Positions 3,225 to 22,131 of a stretch of DNA of 25,517 nt are shown here, one piece after another; position 1 is the first letter of the stretch, and each line of letters begins with the position of its first letter. Both the position numbers and the translations under genes were made by a program. Origin of the DNA: an uncultured Intestinimonas sp. (GTDB taxonomy: Bacteria > Bacillota > Clostridia > Oscillospirales > Oscillospiraceae); contig NZ_CALXEE010000026.1 of assembly GCF_944387245.1 (NCBI RefSeq), forward strand, positions 1-25,517, given 5' to 3'. The notes under the pieces were generated by a model. The model saw nothing but the letters and a program-made list of their open reading frames with translations. It was not told the DNA's origin and ran no database searches.

Positions 3225-3265
3225 GGGGGGAATCTGTGGCCGCAGGCGACTGAGAGAGAAACGGT

Positions 3266-3601
3266 CTCCGGCGGGCCCCTTTCTGGATGACCAGAAAGGG
3301 GCGAAAGAGTCAGTCAAAGAGGGGGATTTCGATTTCCCCCCTTCCCGACACCCAACCCCCTTGAAACGACCAAACACAGGCAAAAGGGGACCCAAATGGA
3401 GCCCAGCGAAGCGGGTCCATTTGGGGGAGGAGGGGCAAGGGAGCCGAGCGAGACCTGGCCGTCAGGCCAGGGTGAGCGGTGCGGACTTTGTCCCGACGAC
3501 GGCCCCCCTATTGGAAGTACCCCCCGGGGCTCTTCTACTGTTACGCCACTTGCACCGTCGGCTTACTCCGTAACGCCGCCGGTGCCCGGGCGTAGGGGCG
3601 G
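3266..3601 (+). repeat. Family-A repeat, copy 1 (~336 bp, hairpin-rich)
   Basis: Aligns by eye at roughly 90% identity with 5508-5853 in the same orientation. Contains hairpins cccctttctgg-atga-ccagaaagggg, cccaaatgga..tccatttggg and ctggcc-gtca-ggccag. Starts 42 nt after the gpr stop. Confidence 0.85.
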
Positions 3602-3630: not shown

Positions 3631-3673
3631 GCGTGGTACCGTGGCGCGTCTGGCAAACCGTGCCCCACAAATG
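3631..3673 (-). repeat. Family-C hairpin, inverted copy
   Basis: The reverse complement reads catttgtggggcacggtttgccagacgcgccacggtacc. This matches the motif TGTGGGGCGCG-GCTTCCCAGA-CGCGCC seen at 5875, 9121, 13893 and 16501. Confidence 0.7.
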
Positions 3674-3766
3674 AAACTTTCCCGTATCGGTGCGGCGGGC
3701 GATCAAAGGCCGCCCCTACACAGGCAAAACAGTGTCCAAAACCGTGCTTTCTTTCCGTCCCAGCCC

Positions 3767-3795: not shown

Positions 3796-3814
3796 GGCTC
3801 CACATTGGAAAAGG

Positions 3815-4041
3815 CAGTGACCGGGAGAAGTACGCGAGGACCCGGACCGCAGAGAGGAGCCGCTTGGGTGCAAGGCTCCCGACGGTCCCGCGGAAGGCGC
3901 CCGTGAGCCGCGGAGCGGAAATGCTCCGCCGTCTCGTCCCCGTTACGGACTTCGAGTGTGCGCCCCACGGGGCGTAAATTCAGGTGGTACCACGGACCGT
4001 CAGCGTTCGCCCTGAGCCATAAGCTCAGGGCGTTTTCTTTT
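3815..4041 (+). promoter_or_regulatory. T-box riboswitch leader, glycine (GGC) specifier, with intrinsic terminator
   Basis: AGAGAG plus a distal GGTGCAA loop (3851-3875). Specifier loop GAA-GGC-G..GTGAGC, with GGC at 3896-3898. Stem III cgcccc-ac-ggggcg. T-box motif AAATTCAGGTGGTACCACGG (3976-3995). Terminator cgccctgagc/gctcagggcg (4008-4032) followed by a T-run to 4041. Confidence 0.9.
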
Positions 4042-4077: not shown

Positions 4078-5499
4078 ATGAAAAACACCGAAAAGACCAT
4101 GGAACAGATCGTAGCCCTGTGCAAGGGCCGTGGCTTCATCTTCGCCGGCAGCGAGATCTACGGCGGCCTGGCCAACACCTGGGACTACGGCCCCCTGGGT
4201 GTGGAGCTCAAGAACAACGTGAAAAAAGCCTGGTGGAAGAAGTTCGTCCAGGAGAACCCCTACAACGTGGGTCTGGACGCCGCCATCCTCATGAACCCCC
4301 AGGTGTGGGTGGCCTCCGGCCACGTGGGCGGCTTCTCCGACCCCCTCATGGACTGCAAGGAGTGCAAGGAGCGCTTCCGCGCCGACAAGGTCATTGAGGA
4401 CTGGTGCGCCGAGACCGGCTTCACCCTGCCCAAGCCGGTGGACGCCCTGTCCCAGGATGAGATGAAGGCCTTCGTGGAGGAGCACAACATCCCCTGCCCC
4501 TCCTGCGGCAAGCACAACTGGACCGACATCCGCCAGTTCAACCTGATGTTCAAGACCTTCCAGGGCGTCACCGAGGACGCCAAGAACACCGTCTACCTGC
4601 GCCCCGAGACCGCCCAGGGTATCTTTGTCAACTTCCAGAACGTCCAGCGCACCACCCGCAGAAAGCTGCCCTTCGGCGTGTGCCAGGTGGGCAAGAGCTT
4701 CCGCAACGAGATCACCCCCGGCAACTTCACCTTCCGCACCCGTGAGTTCGAGCAAATGGAGCTGGAGTTCTTCTGCCAGCCCGGCACCGAGCTGGATTGG
4801 TTCAAGTACTGGAAGGAGTTCTGCCACAAGTGGCTGCTGGACCTGGGCATGAAGGACGAGAACCTGCGGCTCCGGGACCACGATCCCGAGGAGCTCTCCC
4901 ACTACTCCAACGCCACCACCGACTTTGAGTTCGTCTTCCCCTTCGGCTGGGGCGAGCTGTGGGGCGTGGCCAGCCGCACCAACTTCGACCTGAACGCCCA
5001 CCAGACCACCTCCGGCAAGGACATGACCTACTTCGACCAGGAGAAGAACGAGCACTATATCCCCTACGTCATCGAGCCCTCCCTGGGCGCCGACCGCGTG
5101 ACCCTAGCCTTCCTGGTGGACGCCTACGACGAGGAGGTGGTGGACGCCGAGAAGAACGACGTCCGCACCGTCCTGCGGCTCCACCCCGCCCTGGCCCCCT
5201 TCAAGTGCGCCGTGCTGCCCCTCTCCAAGAAGCTGGGCGACAAGGCCCGGGAGATCCAGGCCGAGCTCTCCAAGTACTTCATGGTGGACTACGACGACGC
5301 CGGCTCCATCGGCAAGCGCTACCGCCGCGAGGACGAGATCGGCACCCCCTACTGCATCACCGTGGACTTCCAGACCGTGGGCGACGACAAGACCCCCGCT
5401 GACAACTGCGTCACCGTCCGCGACCGCGACACCATGGACCAGGTGCGGATTCCCATCGATCAGCTCAAGGACTATATCGCTGAAAGAATGGCGTTTTAA
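4078..5499 (+). CDS. glyQS: Glycine--tRNA ligase (class II, homodimeric GlyQS type)
   Basis: The ORF track starts at 3958 inside the T-box. The real start is ATG 4078 ([22 protein letters not shown]..) after AAGGAG. Class II motifs are present ([29 protein letters not shown]). Confidence 0.96.
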
Positions 5500-5507
5500 G
5501 TAAATGC

Positions 5508-5853
5508 CTCCGGCGGGCCCCTTTCTGAATGACCAGAAAGGGGCGAAAGAGTCAGTCAAGGAGGGGGATTTCGATTTCCCCCTCCTTGACAATCCTCCCC
5601 TTAAAACGACCAAGCACAGGGAAAAGGGGACCCAAATGGAACCCGGCGAAGCGGGTCCATTTGGGAGAGGAGGGGCAAGGGAGCTCAGCGAGACCTGGCC
5701 GTCAGGCCGGGGTGAGCGGTGCGGACTTTGCCCCGACGATGGCCCCCCTATTGGAAGTACCCCCCGGGGCTCTTCTATCGTTACGCTGTCTGCACCGTCG
5801 GCTTACTTTGTAACGCCGCCGGCGCTCAGGCGTAGAGGCGGCCTACGGCCGCC
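5508..5853 (+). repeat. Family-A repeat, copy 2
   Basis: Direct repeat of 3266-3601. Starts 8 nt after the glyQS stop and ends in the hairpin ggcggcc-tac-ggccgcc. Confidence 0.85.
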
Positions 5854-5874
5854 CGTCGCGCCGCTATGGGACCC

Positions 5875-5916
5875 CATTGGCGCGGGGCGCGGCTTCCCAG
5901 ACGCGCCCGGTACCGC
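5875..5916 (+). repeat. Family-C hairpin
   Basis: cattggcgcggggcgcggcttcccagacgcgcccggtaccgc. Stem gggcgcg/cgcgccc with the conserved loop gcttcccaga. Confidence 0.7.
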
Positions 5917-6007: not shown

Positions 6008-7864
6008 ATGAAAAAAATCCCCCTCTTTCAGCGCCATGCCGACCAGTCCTGGCCGGTGTGGAAAACCACCCTCTTCTGGGGCTGGAACCTCTTCTGGGGC
6101 CTGTGTTCCGCCCTGGGCGTAGGCCTTGTGAGCCTGGTCTTTGCCGCCGTCATCGACCAGAAGGCCATGCTCCTGAGCTACTTCCAGAACCCCCTCATCG
6201 CCTTTCTGAACCTGGCCCCGGCGGTGCTCCTCTACTTCCTGCTCTATTTCATCCTGGGCCGGGCCTCCCTGGCCTACGCTCTCACCGCCGCCATCACCCT
6301 GGGCTTCACCATGGGCAGCTGGTTCAAGCTCCAGTTCCGCAACGACCCCCTCATGTTCGAGGACCTGCTCCTTCTGAAGGAGGCCGGCAACATGGCGGGG
6401 AAGTACCAGCTCTTCCTCACCAAGACTATGATCCTGGCCCTGGTGGTCCTCATCCTCGGCTGGCTCTTTCTCCACTTCTGCGTCCGGGGCCGCCCCGGCG
6501 CCCGCCTGCGGCTGCTGGGCTTCGCCCTGGCCGTCCTCTGCGCCCTCCCCGTGTGGAATATGACCCAGAGCGACGACATCTACAACAACCGCACCGCCAA
6601 CAACGGCCTCATCAACCAGTGGTCGGCCACTCAGGTCTACGTGTCCAAGGGCTTTGTCTATCCCTTCCTCCACAGCGTGAAGTCGGCCTCCGACGCCCCG
6701 CCGGAGGGCTATGACGCCGCCCGGGCCGAGACCATCCTGGCCGGCTGCGAGGACGCCGACATCCCCGAGAACAAAAAGGTGTCGGTGATCTCCATCATGC
6801 TGGAGTCCTACGACGACTTCTCCAAGTACGGCACCCCCACCCTGGACCCCAAGGTGTACGCCGACTACCACGCCCTGGAGGCCGAGAGCCTCACCGGCGA
6901 CCTCATCACCAACATCTTCGCCGGCGGCACCGTGGACTCGGAGCGGTGCTTCCTCACCGGGTTTGCCGATCTGGGCTCCTTCCGGTCGGCCACCAACTCC
7001 TACCCCTGGTACTTCCGCAGCCAGGGCTACACCGTTACCGGCTCCCATCCCTGCTACGCCTGGTTCTACAACCGGGAGAACATCAACGTGAACCTGGGCT
7101 TTGAGGACTACCGCTTCGTAGAGAACTACTTCTCTCCCATGACCGACGGCGGCGTGGGCTACGACGATCTCTTTTTCCCGGAGCTCATCAAGCTCTGGGA
7201 ACAGGACAAGGCCCTGGGTCAGCCCGTGTTCCAGTACAACCTCACCTACCAGGGCCACGGCCCCTACAACGACGACCAGACCTGGTGGGGCGACGACTAC
7301 GTACACAACGACAAGGGCTACACCCAGGCCGAGCTCAACATCCTCAACAACTACTTTGGCTCCGTCTACAACACCAACCAGAACCTGGTGGAGTTCTTCG
7401 ACTACTTCCGGGCAGAGGAGGAGCCGGTGGTCATCGTGGTCTTTGGCGACCACAACCCCTGGCTGGGGGACGGCAACTCGGTGTATGAGGCCATCGGCCT
7501 GGACCTGGACTTCTCCACCCCCGAGGGCTTTTACAACTACTACTCCACCCGGTACCTCATCTGGGCCAACGACGCCGCCAAGGAGGTTCTGGGCAACGAC
7601 TTCGTGGGGGAGGGCCCCACGGTGAGCCCCAACTTCCTCATGAACGTGGTCTTTGACGCCTGCGGCTGGGAGGGTCCGGCCTACATGCAGGCCACTCAGT
7701 CCGTCATGGAGCAGGTCCCCGTCATGAACACCCCCACCGGCCTCTACATGGAGGACGGCGCCCTCACCGGCACCCTCACCCCCGAGGGACAGGCCCTGGT
7801 CACCGACTACGACATGCTCCAGTACTACTACCGCAAGAACTTCATCTACGACGACCTGCGCTGA
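6008..7864 (+). CDS. LTA synthase family protein (membrane-anchored sulfatase / phosphoglycerol transferase-like)
   Basis: The ORF track starts at 5504 inside repeat A2. The likely start is ATG 6008 (MKKIPLFQ..) after AAAGGA. Several N-terminal TM helices are followed by a sulfatase-type domain (SIMLESYDDF, GGTVDSERCFLTG, VVFGDHNPW). Confidence 0.85.
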   Translation: MKKIPLFQRHADQSWPVWKTTLFWGWNLFWGLCSALGVGLVSLVFAAVIDQKAMLLSYFQNPLIAFLNLAPAVLLYFLLYFILGRASLAYALTAAITLGFTMGSWFKLQFRNDPLMFEDLLLLKEAGNMAGKYQLFLTKTMILALVVLILGWLFLHFCVRGRPGARLRLLGFALAVLCALPVWNMTQSDDIYNNRTANNGLINQWSATQVYVSKGFVYPFLHSVKSASDAPPEGYDAARAETILAGCEDADIPENKKVSVISIMLESYDDFSKYGTPTLDPKVYADYHALEAESLTGDLITNIFAGGTVDSERCFLTGFADLGSFRSATNSYPWYFRSQGYTVTGSHPCYAWFYNRENINVNLGFEDYRFVENYFSPMTDGGVGYDDLFFPELIKLWEQDKALGQPVFQYNLTYQGHGPYNDDQTWWGDDYVHNDKGYTQAELNILNNYFGSVYNTNQNLVEFFDYFRAEEEPVVIVVFGDHNPWLGDGNSVYEAIGLDLDFSTPEGFYNYYSTRYLIWANDAAKEVLGNDFVGEGPTVSPNFLMNVVFDACGWEGPAYMQATQSVMEQVPVMNTPTGLYMEDGALTGTLTPEGQALVTDYDMLQYYYRKNFIYDDLR

Positions 7865-7918: not shown

Positions 7919-7944
7919 ACCTTCCCCCCTGGTGGGGGAAGGTT
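7919..7944. repeat. Solo P-type palindrome
   Basis: accttccccc-ctggt-gggggaaggt, then tttt. There is no adjacent H hairpin or GGATGAGGG motif. Confidence 0.7.
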
Positions 7945-8091
7945 TTACGGAGGTCTTTCCACATTTCGCTCTTTTTTGTGGAAAGTTTCCCGCTATTTCA
8001 CCCCCCTTTCCCGGTACGCACCCAATTTTTCTCCACATTTCTATTTGAAATGTGGAAGGTTTTTAAAGAAATAAATTGGAGGCATACACCC

Positions 8092-9089: not shown

Positions 9090-9120
9090 GTCGGATTTTA
9101 TGGACGATAGGGGGCAGCCT

Positions 9121-9152
9121 CGATTGTGGGGCGCGGCTTCCCAGATGCGCCA
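9121..9152 (+). repeat. Family-C hairpin
   Basis: cgattgtggggcgcggcttcccagatgcgcc. Confidence 0.7.
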
Positions 9153-9420
9153 AACCCCGCCCCGAACCATTACCATTCTGTTATGTGTAAGGACGGGGGA
9201 GACGGCTTAAAACCCGTTTTGCTTTCCTGCTGGAAAAAGAACGGTTTTTGGAATCCAAAGAAAAAGGGGCTCCCGTGCGGGTTAAGCGGCTCTAAATAGG
9301 AATCCGGCGGCCCGTCTTTACGCCCCCATAGAGCACCAGCCCCGTCTACGGTAGACTACCTGGGCGGAACAGAGACAAGTTGTGGTTCTATCCAACATTT
9401 TTTCGCCGCCTGCGTGGGTG
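9153..9420 (+). repeat. Family-B repeat, copy 1
   Basis: Aligns by eye (roughly 85-90%) with 13616-13853 and 20003-20272. Shared core: ggacggg.gagacgg..aaaacccgtttt gcttccctgctggaaaaagaacggttttt..atccaaagaaaaagggg..ccaaataggaatccg..tttacgccccc..ttttt.gccgcctgcgtgg. Confidence 0.85.
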
Positions 9421-9461
9421 AAAGTTGCGGCGTAAGTTAGCGGGTGGCCTGCAAAGACGGC

Positions 9462-9527: not shown

Positions 9528-9965
9528 TTACTTGAACTTCTTACTCTCCATCACCGCCAGCTCATCACAGCGGTTGTTGTAGGGATTCTCCGCATGCCCT
9601 TTGACCCAGTGGAGGTTGACGGTATGGTAGTCGCACAGATTCAGGAGCTTCTCCCAAAGGTCGGGGTTGAGGGCGGGCTTCTTGTCGCCCTTCACCCAGC
9701 CCCGGGCCTTCCAGCCCCGGGCCCAGCCCTTCTCCAGGGCATCAATGACGTACTTGGAGTCGGAATAGAGCTCCACGATACAGGGCTCCTTCAGCGCCTC
9801 CAGGGCGGTGATGACCCCGGTGAGCTCCATGCGGTTGTTGGTGGTGTGCCCCTCGCCGCCGGAGAGCTCCTTTTTGAATTTGCCGTACATCAGGATGGCA
9901 CCCCAGCCCCCGGGGCCCGGGTTCCCCGAACAGGCGCCGTCGGTATAGATGGTGACTGTTTTCAT
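9528..9965 (-). CDS. rnhA: Ribonuclease HI
   Basis: 145 aa from ATG 9965: [22 protein letters not shown]...NNRMEL...YSDSKYV...[18 protein letters not shown], the classic RNase HI motifs. GGAAGGAGG lies immediately upstream. In the ORF track it is the C-terminal half of the 9528-10406 ORF. Confidence 0.9.
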
Positions 9966-10373
9966 AGGCCTCCTTCCATACCTTCCCCCCTCAGGGGGGA
10001 AGGTGTCCCCGCAGGGGACGAATGAGGGGGCGCTGCGCTCTGTCTCCTGTCGGATCACAGCGCACACTCCCTCAAATCGTTGTGCGATGTCCAAATTACT
10101 GAACCGGAGCAGCCGTAGATGATGGACCTGCTCCAAATACAGGTCCCGCCGTCGGTCCGCGGCCTGCCCCTGGTCCTCATAGTGCTGAGAGCCGTCCAGC
10201 TCAATGGCCAGTCTGGGCGAATGACAGTAAAAATCCACAATATAGGGTCCGAATACCACTTGACGGCGGAAGGGGAGAGGAAAGGTACGAAGAAACTGAT
10301 ACCACAGCTTTTGCTCCTCTTTTGTGGGGTTTTTTCGGAGCTTCCGGGCATTCTCCCGCATCCATGGGAGCAT
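9528..10373 (-). CDS. DUF559 (Vsr-like endonuclease domain) ORF with no stop of its own, reading in frame into rnhA
   Basis: From ATG 10373 ([65 protein letters not shown]) the DUF559 pattern is clear. No stop codon occurs before the rnhA ATG (linker ..[33 protein letters not shown]..). The GTG at 10406 is an alternative start. Confidence 0.7.
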
Positions 10374-10439
10374 ATCCACACCCCCCTCATCCGCCCCAGT
10401 GGGCACACTGGGGCACCTTCCCCCCTGTGGGGGGAAGGT
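9980..10439 (-). mobile_element. Candidate autonomous element: DUF559 gene bracketed by structured ~50-60-nt inverted ends
   Basis: Left end 9980-10030: ACCTTCCCCCC-tca-GGGGGGAAGGT, GTCCCC-gca-GGGGAC, GAATGAGGGGG. Right end 10381-10439: CCCCCCTCATCC, CCCCAGTG-ggca-CACTGGGG, ACCTTCCCCCC-tgtg-GGGGGGAAGGT. The two ends are inverted counterparts. Confidence 0.6.
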
Positions 10440-10463
10440 TTTTCTTTTCTCCTCCGCTGAACC

Positions 10464-11070: not shown

Positions 11071-13568
<2,498 letters not shown>

Positions 13569-13615
13569 CTATTGTTTCCTCCTTGGGTAGAGGTTCGGTT
13601 GATTTTTACGCTTGG

Positions 13616-13882
13616 GGACGGGAGAGACGCGTTCGAGCTTTCAAAAACCGTTTCGCTTCCCTGCTGGAAAAAGAACGGTTTTTGCAATCCAAAGAAAAAG
13701 GGGCTCCCGTGGGGGTTAGGTGGCTCCAAATAGGAATCCGCCGGCCCGTCTTTACGCCCCCATAGAGCACCGGCACCGTCCACAGGTGACTCCGCCGGTG
13801 GAACAGGGATACGCTGTGGTCCTATCCAACATTTTTTCGCCGCCTGCGTGGATGGGGGGCGGGACGTGGCGCCGCTGCCTGT
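13616..13882 (+). repeat. Family-B repeat, copy 2 (in the gyrB-gyrA spacer)
   Basis: Same core as 9189-9420 and 20041-20272, plus a ~28-nt extension shared with copy 3 (gacgtggcgccgctgcctg). Contains an 11-bp perfect stem caaaaaccgtt / aacggtttttg. Confidence 0.85.
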
Positions 13883-13892
13883 TTTTCCCTCC

Positions 13893-13924
13893 TATTGTGG
13901 GGTGCGGCTTCCCAGACGCACCCC
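13893..13924 (+). repeat. Family-C hairpin (stem variant with a compensated change)
   Basis: tattgtggggtgcggcttcccagacgcacccc. The stem is ggtgcg/cgcacc here and ggcgcg/cgcgcc elsewhere. The loop is identical. Confidence 0.7.
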
Positions 13925-13927
13925 TAA

Positions 13928-14126
13928 ACCTTCTCCCTCGCAGGGAGAAGGTGGCATTTGCGGAGCAAATGACGGATGAGGGTGGGTCGGTATATTTGTT
14001 CTATCCCACGCAACCCGTCCAGCATAGCTGGCCGGGCCTACGCTGAAAATGTGCTACCGCCACATTTTCTTCACGCTGCGGCCTCATCCGGCCCTGCGGG
14101 CCACCTTCCCCCCTCAGGGGGGAAGA
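13928..14126. mobile_element. D element copy 1: ORF-less MITE/REPIN-like element with the DUF559-element ends
   Basis: Left end: ACCTTCTCCC-tcgca-GGGAGAAGGT, gcatttgc-ggag-caaatg.c, GGATGAGGGTG (13974-13984). Right end: GCCTCATCCGG (14081-14091), ggccc-tgc-gggcc, ACCTTCCCCCC-tca-GGGGGGAAG. The interior has an A-run/stem/T-run hairpin aaaatgtg..cacatttt (14046-14068). Confidence 0.7.
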
Positions 14127-14139
14127 TCAAAAAGGTCCC

Positions 14140-16143
<2,004 letters not shown>

Positions 16144-16480: not shown

Positions 16481-16573
16481 CTGTTGTGGGGCCGTTTCAT
16501 CTGTGGGGCGCGGCTTCCCAGACGCGCCCATGGCACCACTTGATTTTGTGGGGCGCGACGACCTCGGCACGCC
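16481..16573 (+). repeat. Three tandem family-C hairpin units
   Basis: ctgttgtggggccgtttcat (truncated unit), ctgtggggcgcggcttcccagacgcgccc (canonical unit), tttgtggggcgcgacgacctcggcacgcc (variant loop). Confidence 0.65.
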
Positions 16574-16580
16574 ATATAAA

Positions 16581-16719
16581 ACCTTCCCCCTTCCAGGGGG
16601 AAGGTGGCGGCGTGAGTCGCCGGATGAGGGTGGGCTGGTACGTTGAATTTGGCTTTTGTTCTATCCGGCTCCCCCTAATCCGGCCCTTCGGGCCACCTTC
16701 CCCCCTGTGGGGGGAAGGT
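16581..16719. mobile_element. D element copy 2 (short form, 139 bp)
   Basis: Left end: ACCTTCCCCC-ttcca-GGGGGAAGGT, ggcggc-gtga-gtcgcc, GGATGAGGGTG (16622-16632). Right end: CCCTAATCCGG, ggccc-ttc-gggcc, ACCTTCCCCCC-tgtg-GGGGGGAAGGT (16695-16719). The interior matches D1 and D3 up to ttctatcc, then lacks ~70-80 nt. The right end lies 2 nt from the recF stop. Confidence 0.7.
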
Positions 16720-16721
16720 TT

Positions 16722-17825
16722 TCAGACCAGCTCTCCGCCGTGGATATGGAATACGGCACCGTGGTCCAATCCCTCTAAACCGTCGTCCTCGCAGCAGGTG
16801 ATGAATACCTGGCCGCCGGTGATGCGGTGGAGGACGAACTCCTGCCGCCGCCGGTCCAGCTCGCTGAGCACGTCGTCCAGCAGCAGCACCGGCCACTCCC
16901 CGGTGTCGTGGTAGAAGATCTCCCGGCAGCCCAGCTTCAGGGAGAGGGCCGCCGTCCGGGTCTGCCCCTGGGAGGCGTAGGTCTTGGCCTCCAGGTCGTT
17001 AATCCGCACCACCATATCGTCCTTGTGGGGTCCGGTAAGACACTGCCGGGCTTCCAGCTCGGCCTGGCGGTGGGTGCGCTGGTGCTCAAGCACCGCCTCC
17101 AGGAGGTCCCGGGTGGGGACCAGGGGGTCGGCCACGGTGCTCACCGTAGCGTAGCCCAGGTCCAGCTGCTCCCGCCCACCGGAGAAGTCGGCATGGACGG
17201 CGGCCGCCGTCTCCCGGAGCCGCTTTAAGAAGTGGGCCCGGTAGTGGATGAGCACCGCCCCCGCCTGGGCCATCTGGTAACTGAAGTCGTCCAGGGTGTC
17301 CAGCAGGTCGGGCTTTTCCTCCCAGTCCCGGAGGATGCGGGTCTTGTGCTCATAGAGCCGCTTGTACTGGGACAGGGCGGCGGCGTACCGGGGCCGGAGC
17401 TGGCAGATGCACTCGTCCAGAAACCGCCGCCGCTCGGCGGCCCCCGCCCGGATGAGGGACAGGTCCTCGGGGCAGAAGAGGACGGTTTGCAGCACCCCGG
17501 AGAGCTCCCCGGCGGTCTTGAGGCGTACCCCGTTGGAGAAGAGCTGCCGCCGCTGGCCCCGGTGGAGCCGGGCCTCCAGCCGGAAGGTCCGCTGCCGGGC
17601 CTCCACCGTGGCCTTCACCACGGCGGAGGGCGCCTCCAGCCGGATGAGCTCCCGGTCGTACCGGGCCCGGTGGGAGGAGGCGGTGGAGAGATAGGCCACG
17701 GCCTCCAGCAGATTGGTCTTGCCCTGAGCATTCTCCCCGTAGATCACGTTGACCCCCGGGGAGAAAGCCGCCTCCAGCCGGCGGTAGTTGCGAAAGTCCT
17801 CCAGGGCCAGGGCGTCCACCCTCAT
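16722..17825 (-). CDS. recF: DNA replication/repair protein RecF
   Basis: 367 aa. It has the Walker A motif [13 protein letters not shown] and the signature SQGQ...[11 protein letters not shown]. Its ATG overlaps the yaaA stop (ATGA). Confidence 0.97.
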
Positions 17826-20002: not shown

Positions 20003-20300
20003 TTAAACCACGTACCGGCCCATTGCTTTCTGTTGCGTAAAAGGACGGGAGAGACGGCTCAAAACCCGTTTTGCTTCCCTGCTGGAAAAAGAACGGTTTT
20101 TGAAATCCAAAGAAAAAGGGGCTTCTAAGCGGGTTAGGTGGCTCCAAATAGGAATCCGGCGGCCCGGCTTTACGCCCCCGTTGAGGTCCAGCCCCGTCTA
20201 CGGTAGACTACCTGGGCGGAACAGGGGCAAGCTGTGGTCCTATCCCCACTTTTTTTGCCGCCTGCGTGGGTGGGTGTCGGGGCGTGGTGGCGCTGCCTGG
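20003..20300 (+). repeat. Family-B repeat, copy 3 (in the dnaA-dnaN spacer)
   Basis: Aligns with 9153-9420 including the ~35-nt left linker, and with 13616-13882 including the right extension. Confidence 0.85.
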
Positions 20301-20346
20301 GATTGCCTCATCTGCAACGTGGGGTGGTTTGAGGGGCGGTGCGCTA

Positions 20347-20557
20347 ACCTTCCCCCATCCAGGGGGAAGGTGGCATTTGCGGAGCAAATGACGGATGAGG
20401 GTGCGTTAGTGTGGCGGATTTGGCTTTTTTTCTATCCAGCGAAACCCGTCCAGCATAGCTGGCCGGGCCTACGCTAAAAATGTGGCACCGGCACATTTTT
20501 TTCACGCTGCGGCCTCATCTGCCCCTTCGGGGCACCTTCTCCCCCGGGGGAGAAGGT
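20347..20557. mobile_element. D element copy 3 (long form, 211 bp)
   Basis: Left end: ACCTTCCCCC-atcca-GGGGGAAGGT, gcatttgc-ggag-caaatg.c, GGATGAGGGTG (20393-20403). Right end: GCCTCATCTG, tgcccc-ttc-ggggca, ACCTTCTCCCCC/GGGGGAGAAGGT (20534-20557). The interior is collinear with D1. Confidence 0.7.
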
Positions 20558-20580
20558 TTTTGTGGGGAGTGGGCCTTTGA

Positions 20581-20604
20581 CCTTTCCTCTTCCAGGGGGA
20601 AGGC
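20581..20604. repeat. Degenerate P-type palindrome abutting the dnaA stop
   Basis: cctttcctc-ttcca-gggggaagg (imperfect 5' arm), ending 1-2 nt from the dnaA stop codon. Confidence 0.4.
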
Positions 20605-20605
20605 T

Positions 20606-21934
20606 TTACTCGTACCGGGCGTTGATATTGGCCCGGATGTCCTTGATGACCTCGGAGATCTCGGGGGTGGTCTTTTTGAGCTTTTCGATGCGCTCGATGG
20701 AGTGGAGGACGGTGGTGTGGTCCCGGTTCTCGAATTCCCGGCCGATCTCCTTCAGGGACATGTTGGTCATCTCCCGGATGAGGTACATGGCCACCTGCCG
20801 GGCCAGGGCGGTGTCCTTGGTACGGCCCTGCCCGCGGAGGGCGCTGTTTTCGATGTTATAGAAGTTGCAGACCTCCTCGATGATGACGTCGGAGGTGGGC
20901 ATGATGTCGGAGGGGTCCTTGAACATATCCCGCACGGCCCGGGTGACGGTGGCGGCGTCGATGCTGCTCCCCTCCAGGTCCCGGAGGGCCATGATCTTGT
21001 TGACGGTGCCCTCGATCTGCCGCACGTTGGCGGTGATGTTCTCGGCCACGTACTGCAAAACCGCCTCGGGCAGCTCCACCCCCATGCGGATGGCCTTGTT
21101 TTTGATAATGGCCATGCGGGTCTCGTAGTCCGGGGGCTGGATGTCGGCGATGAGGCCCCACTCGAACCGGGTCTTCAGACGGTCCTCCAGCTTGAGCATC
21201 TCCTTGGGGGGACGGTCGGCGGTAAAGACGATCTGTTTCCGGGTCTCATAGAGGGTATTGAAGGTGTGGAACATCTCCTCCATGGTGGAGTCCTTGCCGG
21301 CGATGAACTGGACGTCGTCCATCAAAAACACGTCGGCGGAGCGGAACTTCTCCCGGAACTCCTGGTTGCGGCCCTCCCGGATGGCCTGGATGAGCTCATT
21401 GGTGAAGGCGTCGCCCTTGATGTAGACGATGCGGTAGTCGGGGTGGTCGTCGTGGATCTTGTGGGCGATGGCGTAGAGGAGGTGGGTTTTGCCCAGGCCG
21501 GACTCGCCGTAGATGAAGAGGGGATTGTAGTTCATGGCGGGGTGGTCGGCCACCGCACGGGCGGCGGCGTGGGCGAACTTGTTGGACGAGCCCACAACGA
21601 ACCGCTCAAAGGTATACTCCTCCGTGCCGGGGAGGAAACTGTCGTCCTTGGGGGCGGTATTGCGCTGCCGGCGCTCCAGATCGCCGTCCCCCAGCACCTC
21701 CACCTGGAAGTCGGCGGAGAAGAGCTCGTGGAGGGCCTTCTGGATGGGGGGCAGGTAGCGGGAGACGATGATGTCCCGCTTGAAGTCGGACGGGGTGTGG
21801 AGGATGAACTTGTCGCCCTCCATGGATACGGCCACCGTATCGTCAAACCAGGTATGGATGGTGGTGGCGGTCATGTCCGCCTCCATGAGGACAAGGACCC
21901 GGGACCAGATGTCGGCGGCGGAATTCATGGCCAT
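20606..21934 (-). CDS. dnaA: Chromosomal replication initiator protein DnaA
   Basis: The ORF track starts at TTG 21958. ATG 21934 (MAMNSAADIWSRV..) lies 8 nt after GGGAGG, giving 442 aa. It has the AAA+ Walker A motif GESGLGKTHLL and the C-terminal DnaA-box-binding helix (..HTTVLHSIERI..). Confidence 0.98.
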   Translation of the reverse strand: MAMNSAADIWSRVLVLMEADMTATTIHTWFDDTVAVSMEGDKFILHTPSDFKRDIIVSRYLPPIQKALHELFSADFQVEVLGDGDLERRQRNTAPKDDSFLPGTEEYTFERFVVGSSNKFAHAAARAVADHPAMNYNPLFIYGESGLGKTHLLYAIAHKIHDDHPDYRIVYIKGDAFTNELIQAIREGRNQEFREKFRSADVFLMDDVQFIAGKDSTMEEMFHTFNTLYETRKQIVFTADRPPKEMLKLEDRLKTRFEWGLIADIQPPDYETRMAIIKNKAIRMGVELPEAVLQYVAENITANVRQIEGTVNKIMALRDLEGSSIDAATVTRAVRDMFKDPSDIMPTSDVIIEEVCNFYNIENSALRGQGRTKDTALARQVAMYLIREMTNMSLKEIGREFENRDHTTVLHSIERIEKLKKTTPEISEVIKDIRANINARYE

Positions 21935-22131
21935 GGCTGAGACCTCCCTTTGTTGCAAAATGCGTTCTCTCTCCCGTTCCAGGGCAGCAAAGCATCACCC
22001 TTAAAGGCGGACCTTCAAGGATGACGCTGGGTGCCCCGTGGACGGGAGCCTCTTTATCTATGGCGCGCAAGGGCGGAAAGTTGTACGTTCGCGTACACAT
22101 TATAACAAAAATAAGCGGGGTAAGCAATAAG

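Follow-up and report, generated by a model that had tools for sequence, protein, structure and literature searches.

REPIN/RAYT systems are the closest described counterpart of the locus analyzed here. Their short palindromic units lie between genes, either singly or in inverted doublets that span about 100-200 bp, and a single enzyme gene lies between two inverted units. The type of repeat follows the lineage of the enzyme, no duplication of the target site is left, and strand-specific hairpin features suggest recognition of single strands. REP sequences also stabilize upstream mRNA and bind gyrase. A second comparable class is formed by MITEs (e.g., Correia, RUP, or Nezha), which are small and non-coding, share their inverted ends with a gene-bearing element, lie dispersed in intergenic DNA, and are present or absent between strains. 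RIMEs are elements of about 100-150 bp made of large palindromes in rhizobial intergenic regions; to our knowledge, they have been described as Rhizobium-specific and without an associated enzyme.

On the protein side, Vsr and DUF559 belong to a single family with a homing endonuclease of a group I intron, according to a survey of PD-(D/E)XK enzymes (PMC3424549). The Vsr group includes E. coli Vsr, Caulobacter VsrA, I-Bth0305I, and 3HRL, and its members introduce nicks or cuts into DNA at particular sites that are short or pseudopalindromic. VsrA, a DUF559 protein of Caulobacter, is responsible for DNA damage in vivo and for an SOS response when a cytosine methyltransferase is missing, and it has been interpreted as a T:G mismatch-repair nuclease (PMC12907096). 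Repair or intron homing are the roles given for the group, and the reports, as far as consulted here (PMC3424549, PMC12907096, PMC3239194), mention neither flanking structured inverted repeats nor gene-less derivatives. Among predicted inversion targets, an enrichment of the term 'DUF559 domain-containing protein' has been reported (PMC9881135). Apart from that enrichment, the searchable literature on DUF559 contains no description of flanking repeats or mobility. A literature search for Vsr-like nucleases with inverted repeats found none, and a full-text search for printed sequence fragments of the element returned only unrelated primers. The association of DUF559 genes with the repeat modules described below appears to be undescribed in the searchable literature.

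The locus examined here shares the listed REPIN/RAYT features, including the enzyme gene between two inverted units, since 52 of 59 sampled DUF559 genes are flanked in this way. It differs in its gene, which encodes a Vsr-like PD-(D/E)XK nuclease (DUF559) instead of an IS200/IS605-type Y1 HUH tyrosine transposase, and in its ends, which are three-part modules of about 45-60 nt (a palindrome P1, a mini-hairpin P2, and a G-rich box). The flank composition contains no GTAG/CGTC tag of the REP kind, the conserved inner box being GGATGAGGG, and no RAYT occurs among the large ORFs of the window. Moreover, REPs are specific to their lineages, and here one module type has almost the same sequence in different phyla. 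The likeness to MITEs is equally broad, but there is no DDE transposase partner here, no target-site duplication was detected, the ends are themselves hairpins, and the core can invert relative to the arms. RIMEs are approached in size and taxonomy, as many of the module matches listed come from Rhizobiales and the elements measure about 145-150 bp; the old RIME and Caulobacter repeats may be proteobacterial versions of these modules. Taken as a whole, the analysis modestly favors reading the segment between gyrB and gyrA as a non-autonomous, gene-less member of a palindromic family, with hairpin ends that a DUF559 nuclease would recognize while acting in trans.

Genomic setting of the gyrB-gyrA spacer

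The window is the whole stretch of 25,517 nucleotides analyzed (contig NZ_CALXEE010000026.1). Judged by GyrA names, it is the replication-origin region of an uncultured Intestinimonas. The features that frame the element are as follows.

20606-21958, minus strand, dnaA
In the window, minus strand, dnaN
16722-17825, minus strand, recF
Between recF and gyrB, minus strand, remA-like gene
14140-16140, minus strand, gyrB
13882-13922, 'C hairpin', an unrelated repeat in the gyrB-gyrA spacer, found among the repeat families
13610-13867, unrelated 258-nt repeat ('B2') in the gyrB-gyrA spacer, three copies with 79-87% identity
11067-13568, minus strand, gyrA
In the window, minus strand, SHOCT-domain gene
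9528-9965, minus strand, rnhA (RNase HI), entered in frame by the DUF559 ORF via the 3' module

The gyrB-gyrA spacer measures 571 bp in the window. The original prediction had described this length as an expansion by the element together with B2 and the C hairpin, and all three are found there. The 258-nt repeat has a further copy in the recF-remA spacer of Intestinimonas sp. HCP28S3_D6.

Architecture and folding of the gene-less element

Read from the sequence, the segment is a gene-less element of 200 bp at 13928-14127 with compound inverted ends of 47-57 nt each. Every end module consists of P1 (a 25-nt palindrome), P2 (a variable mini-hairpin), and the GGATGAGGG box. The parts are listed from the gyrA side to the gyrB side.

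13928-13952, P1, outer 25-nt palindrome, gyrA-proximal, ACCTTCTCCCTCGCAGGGAGAAGGT
13953-13973, plus strand, P2 mini-hairpin, GGCATTTGCGGAGCAAATGAC, with loop GGA on this strand
13974-13984, plus strand, G-box, the inner inverted-repeat box, GGATGAGGGTG
13985-14079, non-coding core of 95 nt
13999-14006, TTCTATCC box inside the core
14014-14036, core hairpin CCCGTCCAGCATAGCTGGCCGGG
14046-14068, AT-rich 8-bp core hairpin
14080-14089, plus strand, C-box, complement of the G-box, GGCCTCATCC
14090-14102, minus strand, P2' mini-hairpin, GGCCCTGCGGGCC; the minus strand reads GGCCCGCAGGGCC with a GCA loop
14103-14127, P1', outer palindrome, gyrB-proximal, ACCTTCCCCCCTCAGGGGGGAAGAT, with its last stem pair degraded

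An ORF-less element of 199 bp with inverted DUF559-type ends had been predicted at 13928-14126. Every described part is present and the start is correct; the end falls one base further on, at 14127. Small size, terminal inverted repeats, and absence of coding capacity, as in MITEs, are all found in the element.

Predicted folds are exceptionally stable. As single-stranded DNA, the element reaches -58 kcal/mol, compared with -34.2 +/- 3.9 for shuffles (z = -6.2), and an RNA transcript through the spacer reaches -107 kcal/mol (z = -5.5). Both hairpins form at each end in these folds, and the two boxes (13974-13984 and 14080-14089) pair, closing the core. The P2 of this element is the same in copy B, described below, and at the gyrB-gyrA site of relatives.

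A small protein was considered as an alternative product, as a 55-aa ORF begins at the ATG within the GGATGAGG box. The frame is shut after four codons in copy B and no conserved ORF is found, which eliminates this candidate. Rfam contains no family at gathering score over the element, with only chance-level hits at E <= 10 in 13560-14160, and a tRNA scan found nothing.

Additional copies in the window

Three further elements and two solitary palindromes belong to the same family.

20575-20600, degenerate lone P1, directly after the dnaA stop codon and adjoining copy B
20347-20557, copy B, long-core gene-less element in the dnaA-dnaN spacer
16581-16719, copy C, short-core gene-less element directly after the recF stop codon
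9980-10439, minus strand, DUF559 element
10415-10439, P1; 10393-10414, P2; 10381-10392, box (5' end of the DUF559 element)
10037-10373, minus strand, DUF559 gene, ATG at 10373, 114 aa
10020-10030, box; 10005-10019, P2; 9980-10004, P1 (3' end of the DUF559 element)
7919-7947, lone P1-type palindrome, found among the repeat families, which we interpret as a remnant or single unit of the end-module family

The end modules of the gyrB-gyrA element align with 20339-20566, with 16573-16728, and with both strands of 9972-10448. Shared modules are thereby confirmed for the two gene-less copies (20347-20557 and 16581-16719) against which an alignment had been proposed. An end-module pattern finds seven of the eight ends in the window and 0.00 in shuffles. 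The alignment of the four elements and these pattern matches bear out the earlier idea of a dispersed, MITE- or REPIN-like family that shares its ends with the DUF559 element. Copy B is 82% identical to the 13928 copy over its full length, rising to 88% over 119 nt in the core. The long core of the window equals the short core plus a segment of about 70 nt with two hairpins, which short-core copies do not contain. Near one box, short-core copies carry GGATAGAA, where the DUF559 element has GGATATG, including its start codon.

All four elements sit just downstream of stop codons, a placement that bears on whether the element is retained for a host function in gyrBA expression. The element's role would then be to terminate or attenuate transcription, to stabilize mRNA, or to bind gyrase or a nucleoid protein in the manner of E. 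coli REP/BIME sequences. The precedent of REP sequences in mRNA stabilization and gyrase binding, the strongly structured spacer transcript, and the T-runs that often follow outward-facing P1 copies in Intestinimonas (10439, 16719, and 20557 onward) agree with such a function. The terminator variant in particular had been part of the original prediction, which described 14046-14068 as shaped like a bidirectional terminator and the left P1 exit as terminator-like on the minus strand. Neither description holds. The A-run and T-run at 14046-14068 are the 8-bp stem itself (AAAATGTG/CACATTTT, with two G-C pairs), so this AT-rich hairpin has no free T tail, and the exit P1 on the gyrB/gyrA strand is followed only by TTTA. 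A scan for consensus intrinsic terminators called none on the minus strand in 13400-14300, flagging neither 14046-14068 nor 13928-13952. With the inner runs forming a stem and the scan calling nothing that resembles a terminator, neither termination nor attenuation is supported. Proteobacterial copies, with outer flanks that are T/C-rich on the wrong side for outward termination, also argue against it. Retention for a host function is therefore given a low probability, on the order of an outside chance, and a secondary effect of the stable RNA structure on the operon mRNA is possible.

Variation of insertion sites among relatives

Regions from related genomes were retrieved by way of their GyrA proteins. 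Contigs with an exact GyrA match represent the same strain and are uninformative for spacer comparison. Loci are labeled L003 and L004 (both I. timonensis), L006 (I. butyriciproducens), L009 (Intestinimonas sp. HCP28S3_D6), and L333 (I. aquisgranensis), with L331, L332, and L334 to L336 for further relatives. The states observed at three sites are given below.

gyrB-gyrA, no element, unrelated 109-bp spacer: L006
gyrB-gyrA, lone P1: L009 (spacer of 391 bp) and L331/L332 (L331 spacer of 91 bp)
gyrB-gyrA, short-core element: L333
gyrB-gyrA, long core in one orientation: I. timonensis, L334, and L335
gyrB-gyrA, long core in the other orientation: the window and L336
SHOCT-rnhA, clean spacer of 5-8 bp: L006, L009, L331, and L333
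SHOCT-rnhA, lone P1: L003
SHOCT-rnhA, full DUF559 element: the window, L004, L335, and L336
SHOCT-rnhA, gene-less element in tandem with a DUF559 element: L334
recF-remA, no element: L006 and L009
recF-remA, short gene-less element at the site of copy C: the other sampled genomes (L003, L331, L333, L334, and L336)

Presence or absence differs between related genomes at four sites, and additional copies occur at other sites in I. timonensis and L336. The empty site that the original prediction proposed to look for in related genomes exists in I. butyriciproducens. Between close relatives, copies have been gained, lost, reduced to a lone P1, and inverted in their core. The two I. timonensis loci have identical GyrA, yet one carries a lone P1 at SHOCT-rnhA and the other a full DUF559 element. 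At the gyrB-gyrA site, the arms (P1 and P2) are collinear in every long-core copy, and the two groups differ in the direction of the core that lies between the boxes; flipping it gives a match at 105 of 127 bases, compared with 74 of 127 in the same orientation. At SHOCT-rnhA, comparison of the filled with the empty site reveals a direct repeat, AAG(G), the sole site with such a repeat.

Lone P1 copies are better read, from their sequences, as remnants. The lone P1 at the gyrB-gyrA site of HCP28S3_D6 (L009, 9624-9646) is identical to the P1 at 13928-13952. A lone P1 always corresponds to the downstream P1 of the full element, and every such state seen is explicable by deletion between two P1 copies rather than by transposition. 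Support comes from the CTTCTCCCTGCGAGGGAGAAG variant of the lone P1 in L009, which ends other elements in L336, and from I. butyriciproducens, which is free of P1 at all sites. Both observations speak against lone P1 as a native terminator that served as a target. Insertion into the loop of a resident P1 was also rejected, as both arms of the gyrA-proximal P1, with compensating variant bases, stay on one side of the insert.

This variation weighs against a conserved regulatory role as well, given that the spacer of close relatives ranges from nothing over a lone P1 to inverted cores. It also addresses the idea that the segment is an ancient, fixed part of the spacer or resembles DUF559 flanks by chance. 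The gyrA-proximal arm (P2 GTCATTTGCT.CGCAAATGCC and P1) is indeed common to this site down to 95% GyrA identity. Nevertheless, I. butyriciproducens, with 97% GyrA identity, has no element, and L009 and L331 retain only a lone P1. Three more elements with the same ends lie in the window, the pattern has 0 matches in shuffles, and at least 240 module-bearing stretches occur in other genomes and viral contigs, leaving this idea with a negligible probability. Conservation across relatives and lack of further copies had been named as observations that would speak against an insertion; instead, the spacer varies and copies occur in the window and in relatives. With content that is neither conserved nor unique, the gyrB-gyrA segment was inserted long ago in part of the genus and is undergoing rearrangement and erosion; it is not a fixed spacer. 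The same lineage carries such repeats in the recF-remA, dnaA-dnaN, and SHOCT-rnhA spacers, and we infer that the gyrB-gyrA position reflects tolerance of insertions just downstream of stop codons. The lengthening of the spacer by the element is real, but looks incidental.

The DUF559 gene and its flanking modules

The product of 10037-10373 is, by its sequence, clearly assignable to the DUF559/Vsr-like PD-(D/E)XK nucleases. It matches Pfam DUF559 (PF04480) with E = 1.7e-24 and 86 bits, against a cut-off of 20.6, and its nearest solved structure is 3HRL (E = 1.9e-12). The putative catalytic D/E/D/H positions are invariant in a three-sequence alignment, in which D47, E58, D60, Q63, and H64 show no variation. 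A defense-system role was considered and set aside, as the PADLOC matches were weak and none was significant.

A metagenome scan with the three-sequence DUF559 alignment returned 80 loci, 59 of them non-redundant and with enough flanking sequence. Flanking inverted repeats scored above every shuffle in 52 of these 59 genes, and the median score was 50, compared with 19 for mismatched loci. The arms, mostly 35-75 nt long, follow one design. A pyrimidine/purine palindrome is usually followed by a second G+C hairpin and then by a G-rich box adjoining the start codon, with the mirror image after the gene. Module types differ by group, for example ACCCTCCCC.../GGGGTGGGGTGA, GACCTCCCCC.../GGGTGGGGGG, CCCTCTCCCC.../GGGTGAGGGG, and CCTTCYCCC.../GGATGAGGGG. 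DUF559 proteins with the same module type share 58.6% identity versus 48.7% otherwise, a difference reached by 0 of 1000 label permutations. At the level of sequence comparison, module type thus tracks DUF559 lineage.

Almost as a rule, DUF559 genes stand between hairpin modules matched to their lineage, and such modules also build numerous gene-less elements in many phyla. The link between gene and modules is one of association. For the claim that a DUF559-type protein mobilizes the gyrB-gyrA element in trans, the association part stands, through the flanked genes and the lineage co-variation, and the mobilization itself is what we infer.

In the rnhA-adjacent position, a DUF559 gene is found at the same place, in frame with rnhA, in species whose DUF559 is only 51% identical. 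A gene that has long resided there or been domesticated would explain this arrangement as well as a mobile gene would.

Distribution of the end module across genomes

The exact module pattern has at least 120 matches in a collection of one genome per species, spread over many phyla, where by our own estimate a handful at most would be expected by chance. Record titles among the matches listed include Caulobacterales, Rhizobiales, Xanthomonas, Legionella, Geobacteraceae, Planctomycetes, Verrucomicrobia, Bacteroidales, a CPR genome, Acidobacteria-type Thermoanaerobaculia, and Oscillospiraceae. Viral contigs contribute at least 120 further matches to the module pattern and none to the long-core pattern.

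With a relaxed pattern, 185 modules were found in the listed genome loci. Inverted pairs forming elements number 33, of which 29 span 116-215 bp (median near 147) and four span 283-600 bp; the other arrangements are 16 back-to-back pairs, seven tandem arrangements, and 79 solo modules. P1 and the box are nearly constant and P2 is variable, with 96 distinct sequences in 149 modules. A stem of at least 4 bp is nonetheless kept in 51 of the 96 distinct P2 sequences, compared with 5.6% of shuffles. When the module is read from P1 through P2 to the box, GNA accounts for 83 of 100 P2 triloops and the complementary TNC for none. C-GNA-G loops form unusually stable DNA mini-hairpins. As the P2 loops are GNA in a strand-specific manner, the bias points to recognition of a folded single strand, and not of plain duplex, as far as sequence statistics can indicate.

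No signal of target-site duplication emerged from 82 paired elements, in which direct repeats of 2-8 bp at offsets 0-5 showed no excess. Element flanks are often short inverted complements of each other.

Most modules in the module-bearing loci have no DUF559 gene nearby. Such a gene was found close to the module in 2 of 120 listed module-bearing genome loci. About 2 Mb of these loci contain 7 DUF559 genes, 2 of which have a GGATGAGG-type (type A) module at a distance of no more than 200 bp, and in both the module orientation differs from the Intestinimonas arrangement. Cores vary widely in length and sequence, and gene-less cores are unrelated between lineages. Some module pairs (L067 and L099) enclose unrelated ORFs, so the inner slot can carry other cargo.

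This picture is also what would be expected if the repeats spread and decay by other means (another transposase, replication slippage, or host recombination) and DUF559 is a selfish, homing-type gene that colonizes the inner slot. The end modules would then serve as target and homology arms for DUF559, and the gyrB-gyrA copy would be an unoccupied repeat instead of a dependant of DUF559. Vsr-fold nucleases include a true homing endonuclease, I-Bth0305I (PMC3239194; PMC3424549). The unrelated gene-less cores, the slots with other ORFs, and the vast excess of modules over DUF559 genes are consistent with this explanation, as are DUF559 versions that are only 51-69% identical at the same site upstream of rnhA, as expected for homing replacement. 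Against it, the alternatives to the DUF559 element at SHOCT-rnhA are an empty site or a lone P1, and a gene-less repeat awaiting invasion is never seen there. The GGATAGAA motif of short-core copies, set against GGATATG, further hints at derivation from a gene-bearing form. Colonization by a homing gene is accordingly judged unlikely, at perhaps one chance in a few.

The co-variation of module type with DUF559 lineage fits mobilization in trans and homing alike.

Proposed mechanism and biological meaning

Under the preferred reading, mobilization in trans by DUF559, the nuclease would recognize the hairpin-forming ends, probably as single-stranded or extruded DNA, a form of recognition suggested by the strand-specific GNA loops. 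It would cut at or near the boxes and, by analogy with REPIN/RAYT, this cutting would cause elements to be copied, excised, or inverted in trans. If gyrBA expression is affected at all, mRNA structure would be the route, and not a built-in terminator. The reported enrichment of DUF559 proteins among predicted inversion targets fits the inverted flanks and core inversion described here.

More tentatively, and from sequence comparisons, DUF559 proteins may be the enzymes of an unrecognized, pan-bacterial class of palindromic elements, in which a Vsr-fold nuclease, recognizing such hairpin ends, would cause its own cassette, along with hundreds of gene-less doublets, to be copied, excised, and inverted in the core; we hold this wider proposal at somewhat less than even confidence. 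Such a class would be a second, mechanistically different counterpart of REPIN/RAYT.

For annotation, the modules yield spurious ORF tails and fusions, such as PSP..GEG-type peptides and DUF559-RNase H fusions. They also inflate spacers in core operons, for example dnaA-dnaN-recF-gyrB-gyrA, the replication-origin region included. A causal link would make the question directly testable with a protein of 114 aa and a 50-nt substrate.

DUF559, a domain of unknown function, is very common in bacteria, and no enzyme is known for many families of intergenic palindromic repeats. If the link is causal, DUF559 would gain a role, a PD-(D/E)XK nuclease would join the short list of enzymes that propagate REP-like DNA, and the scoring of DUF559 genes as inversion targets would be explained. 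If true, the proposal could account for many 'orphan' intergenic repeat families, possibly including those of the RIME type, as well as for many solitary DUF559 genes.

Core orientation at the gyrB-gyrA site

The gene-less palindromic element in the gyrB-gyrA spacer is found at the same chromosomal site in Intestinimonas timonensis (L003, 9738-9946; window, 13928-14127). Between these lineages its arms are collinear, whereas the core, from box to box, is inverted; the comparison of core orientation at this site also takes in three further Intestinimonas relatives (L334, L335 and L336). A flipped core between collinear arms at a single site shows the GGATGAGG/CCTCATCC boxes to delimit an invertible segment.

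Each end module combines an outer palindrome (P1), a mini-hairpin (P2) and a box. Across the genome contigs carrying the module (L011-L130), 83 of 100 P2 triloops are GNA when the strand is read from P1 to the box, and none of the 100 is TNC in that reading. Triloops of the GNA kind are those found in DNA mini-hairpins of very high stability.

Other repeats in the window

The repeat B2 spans 258 nt and occurs in three window copies (79-87% identity). It includes an 11-bp stem (CAAAAACCGTT/AACGGTTTTTG) and matched no Rfam family. Another copy, in the recF-remA spacer of Intestinimonas sp. HCP28S3_D6 (L009), is opposite in orientation relative to the genes. The C hairpin (TGTGGGGCGCGGCTTCCCAGACGCGCC) represents a third repeat family, whose window copies often adjoin the other repeats, and a ~345-bp repeat, 91-93% identical between copies, flanks the glycyl-tRNA synthetase gene on both sides. 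Besides a copy of B2, the dnaA-dnaN spacer (20347-20607), the usual place of oriC elements in Firmicutes, contains one of the gene-less elements and a lone P1 in degenerate form.

Repeats and leader (window unless stated)
9176-9433, B2
13610-13867, B2
20028-20285, B2
L009, about 6905-7215, B2
5867-5907, C hairpin
9111-9151, C hairpin
13882-13922, C hairpin
16488-16528, C hairpin
3643-3677, C hairpin, inverted
3257-3601 and 5499-5841, ~345-bp repeat
3808-4017, T-box leader

The DUF559-rnhA reading frame

On the minus strand of the window, the DUF559 ORF (Vsr-like nuclease domain) is in frame with rnhA and reads through its own 3' end module. The resulting DUF559-linker-RNase HI ORFs are 281-292 aa long.

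DUF559-linker-RNase HI ORFs
window 9528-10406, minus strand
I. timonensis L004, 13188-14036
also in L132, L133, L136 and L137

The arrangement is shared by species in which the DUF559 parts show just 51-69% identity and the linker varies by two codons in length. This suggests a maintained frame, reflecting either a genuine fusion or translational coupling.

Cargo, coexistence and spread of the end module

Several inverted module pairs enclose sequence in which tblastn found no DUF559 match.

Inverted module pairs
L067, 669-1062, around an ORF of 100-130 aa
L099, 1158-1563, around an ORF of 100-130 aa
L073, 5789-6388, around 600 bp of other sequence

Cargo other than DUF559 can therefore occupy the inner slot. 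In Shinella (L038, about 240-290), a module of a different type (CCCTCTCCCCGCTTGCGGGGAGAGGG + GGGTGAGGGG) precedes a DUF559 gene, with a GGATGAGG-type module 110 bp away; distinct module types thus coexist within one intergenic region. The end module is also present in at least 120 viral or prophage contigs from IMG/VR (L211-L330), through which it may have passed from one phylum to another.
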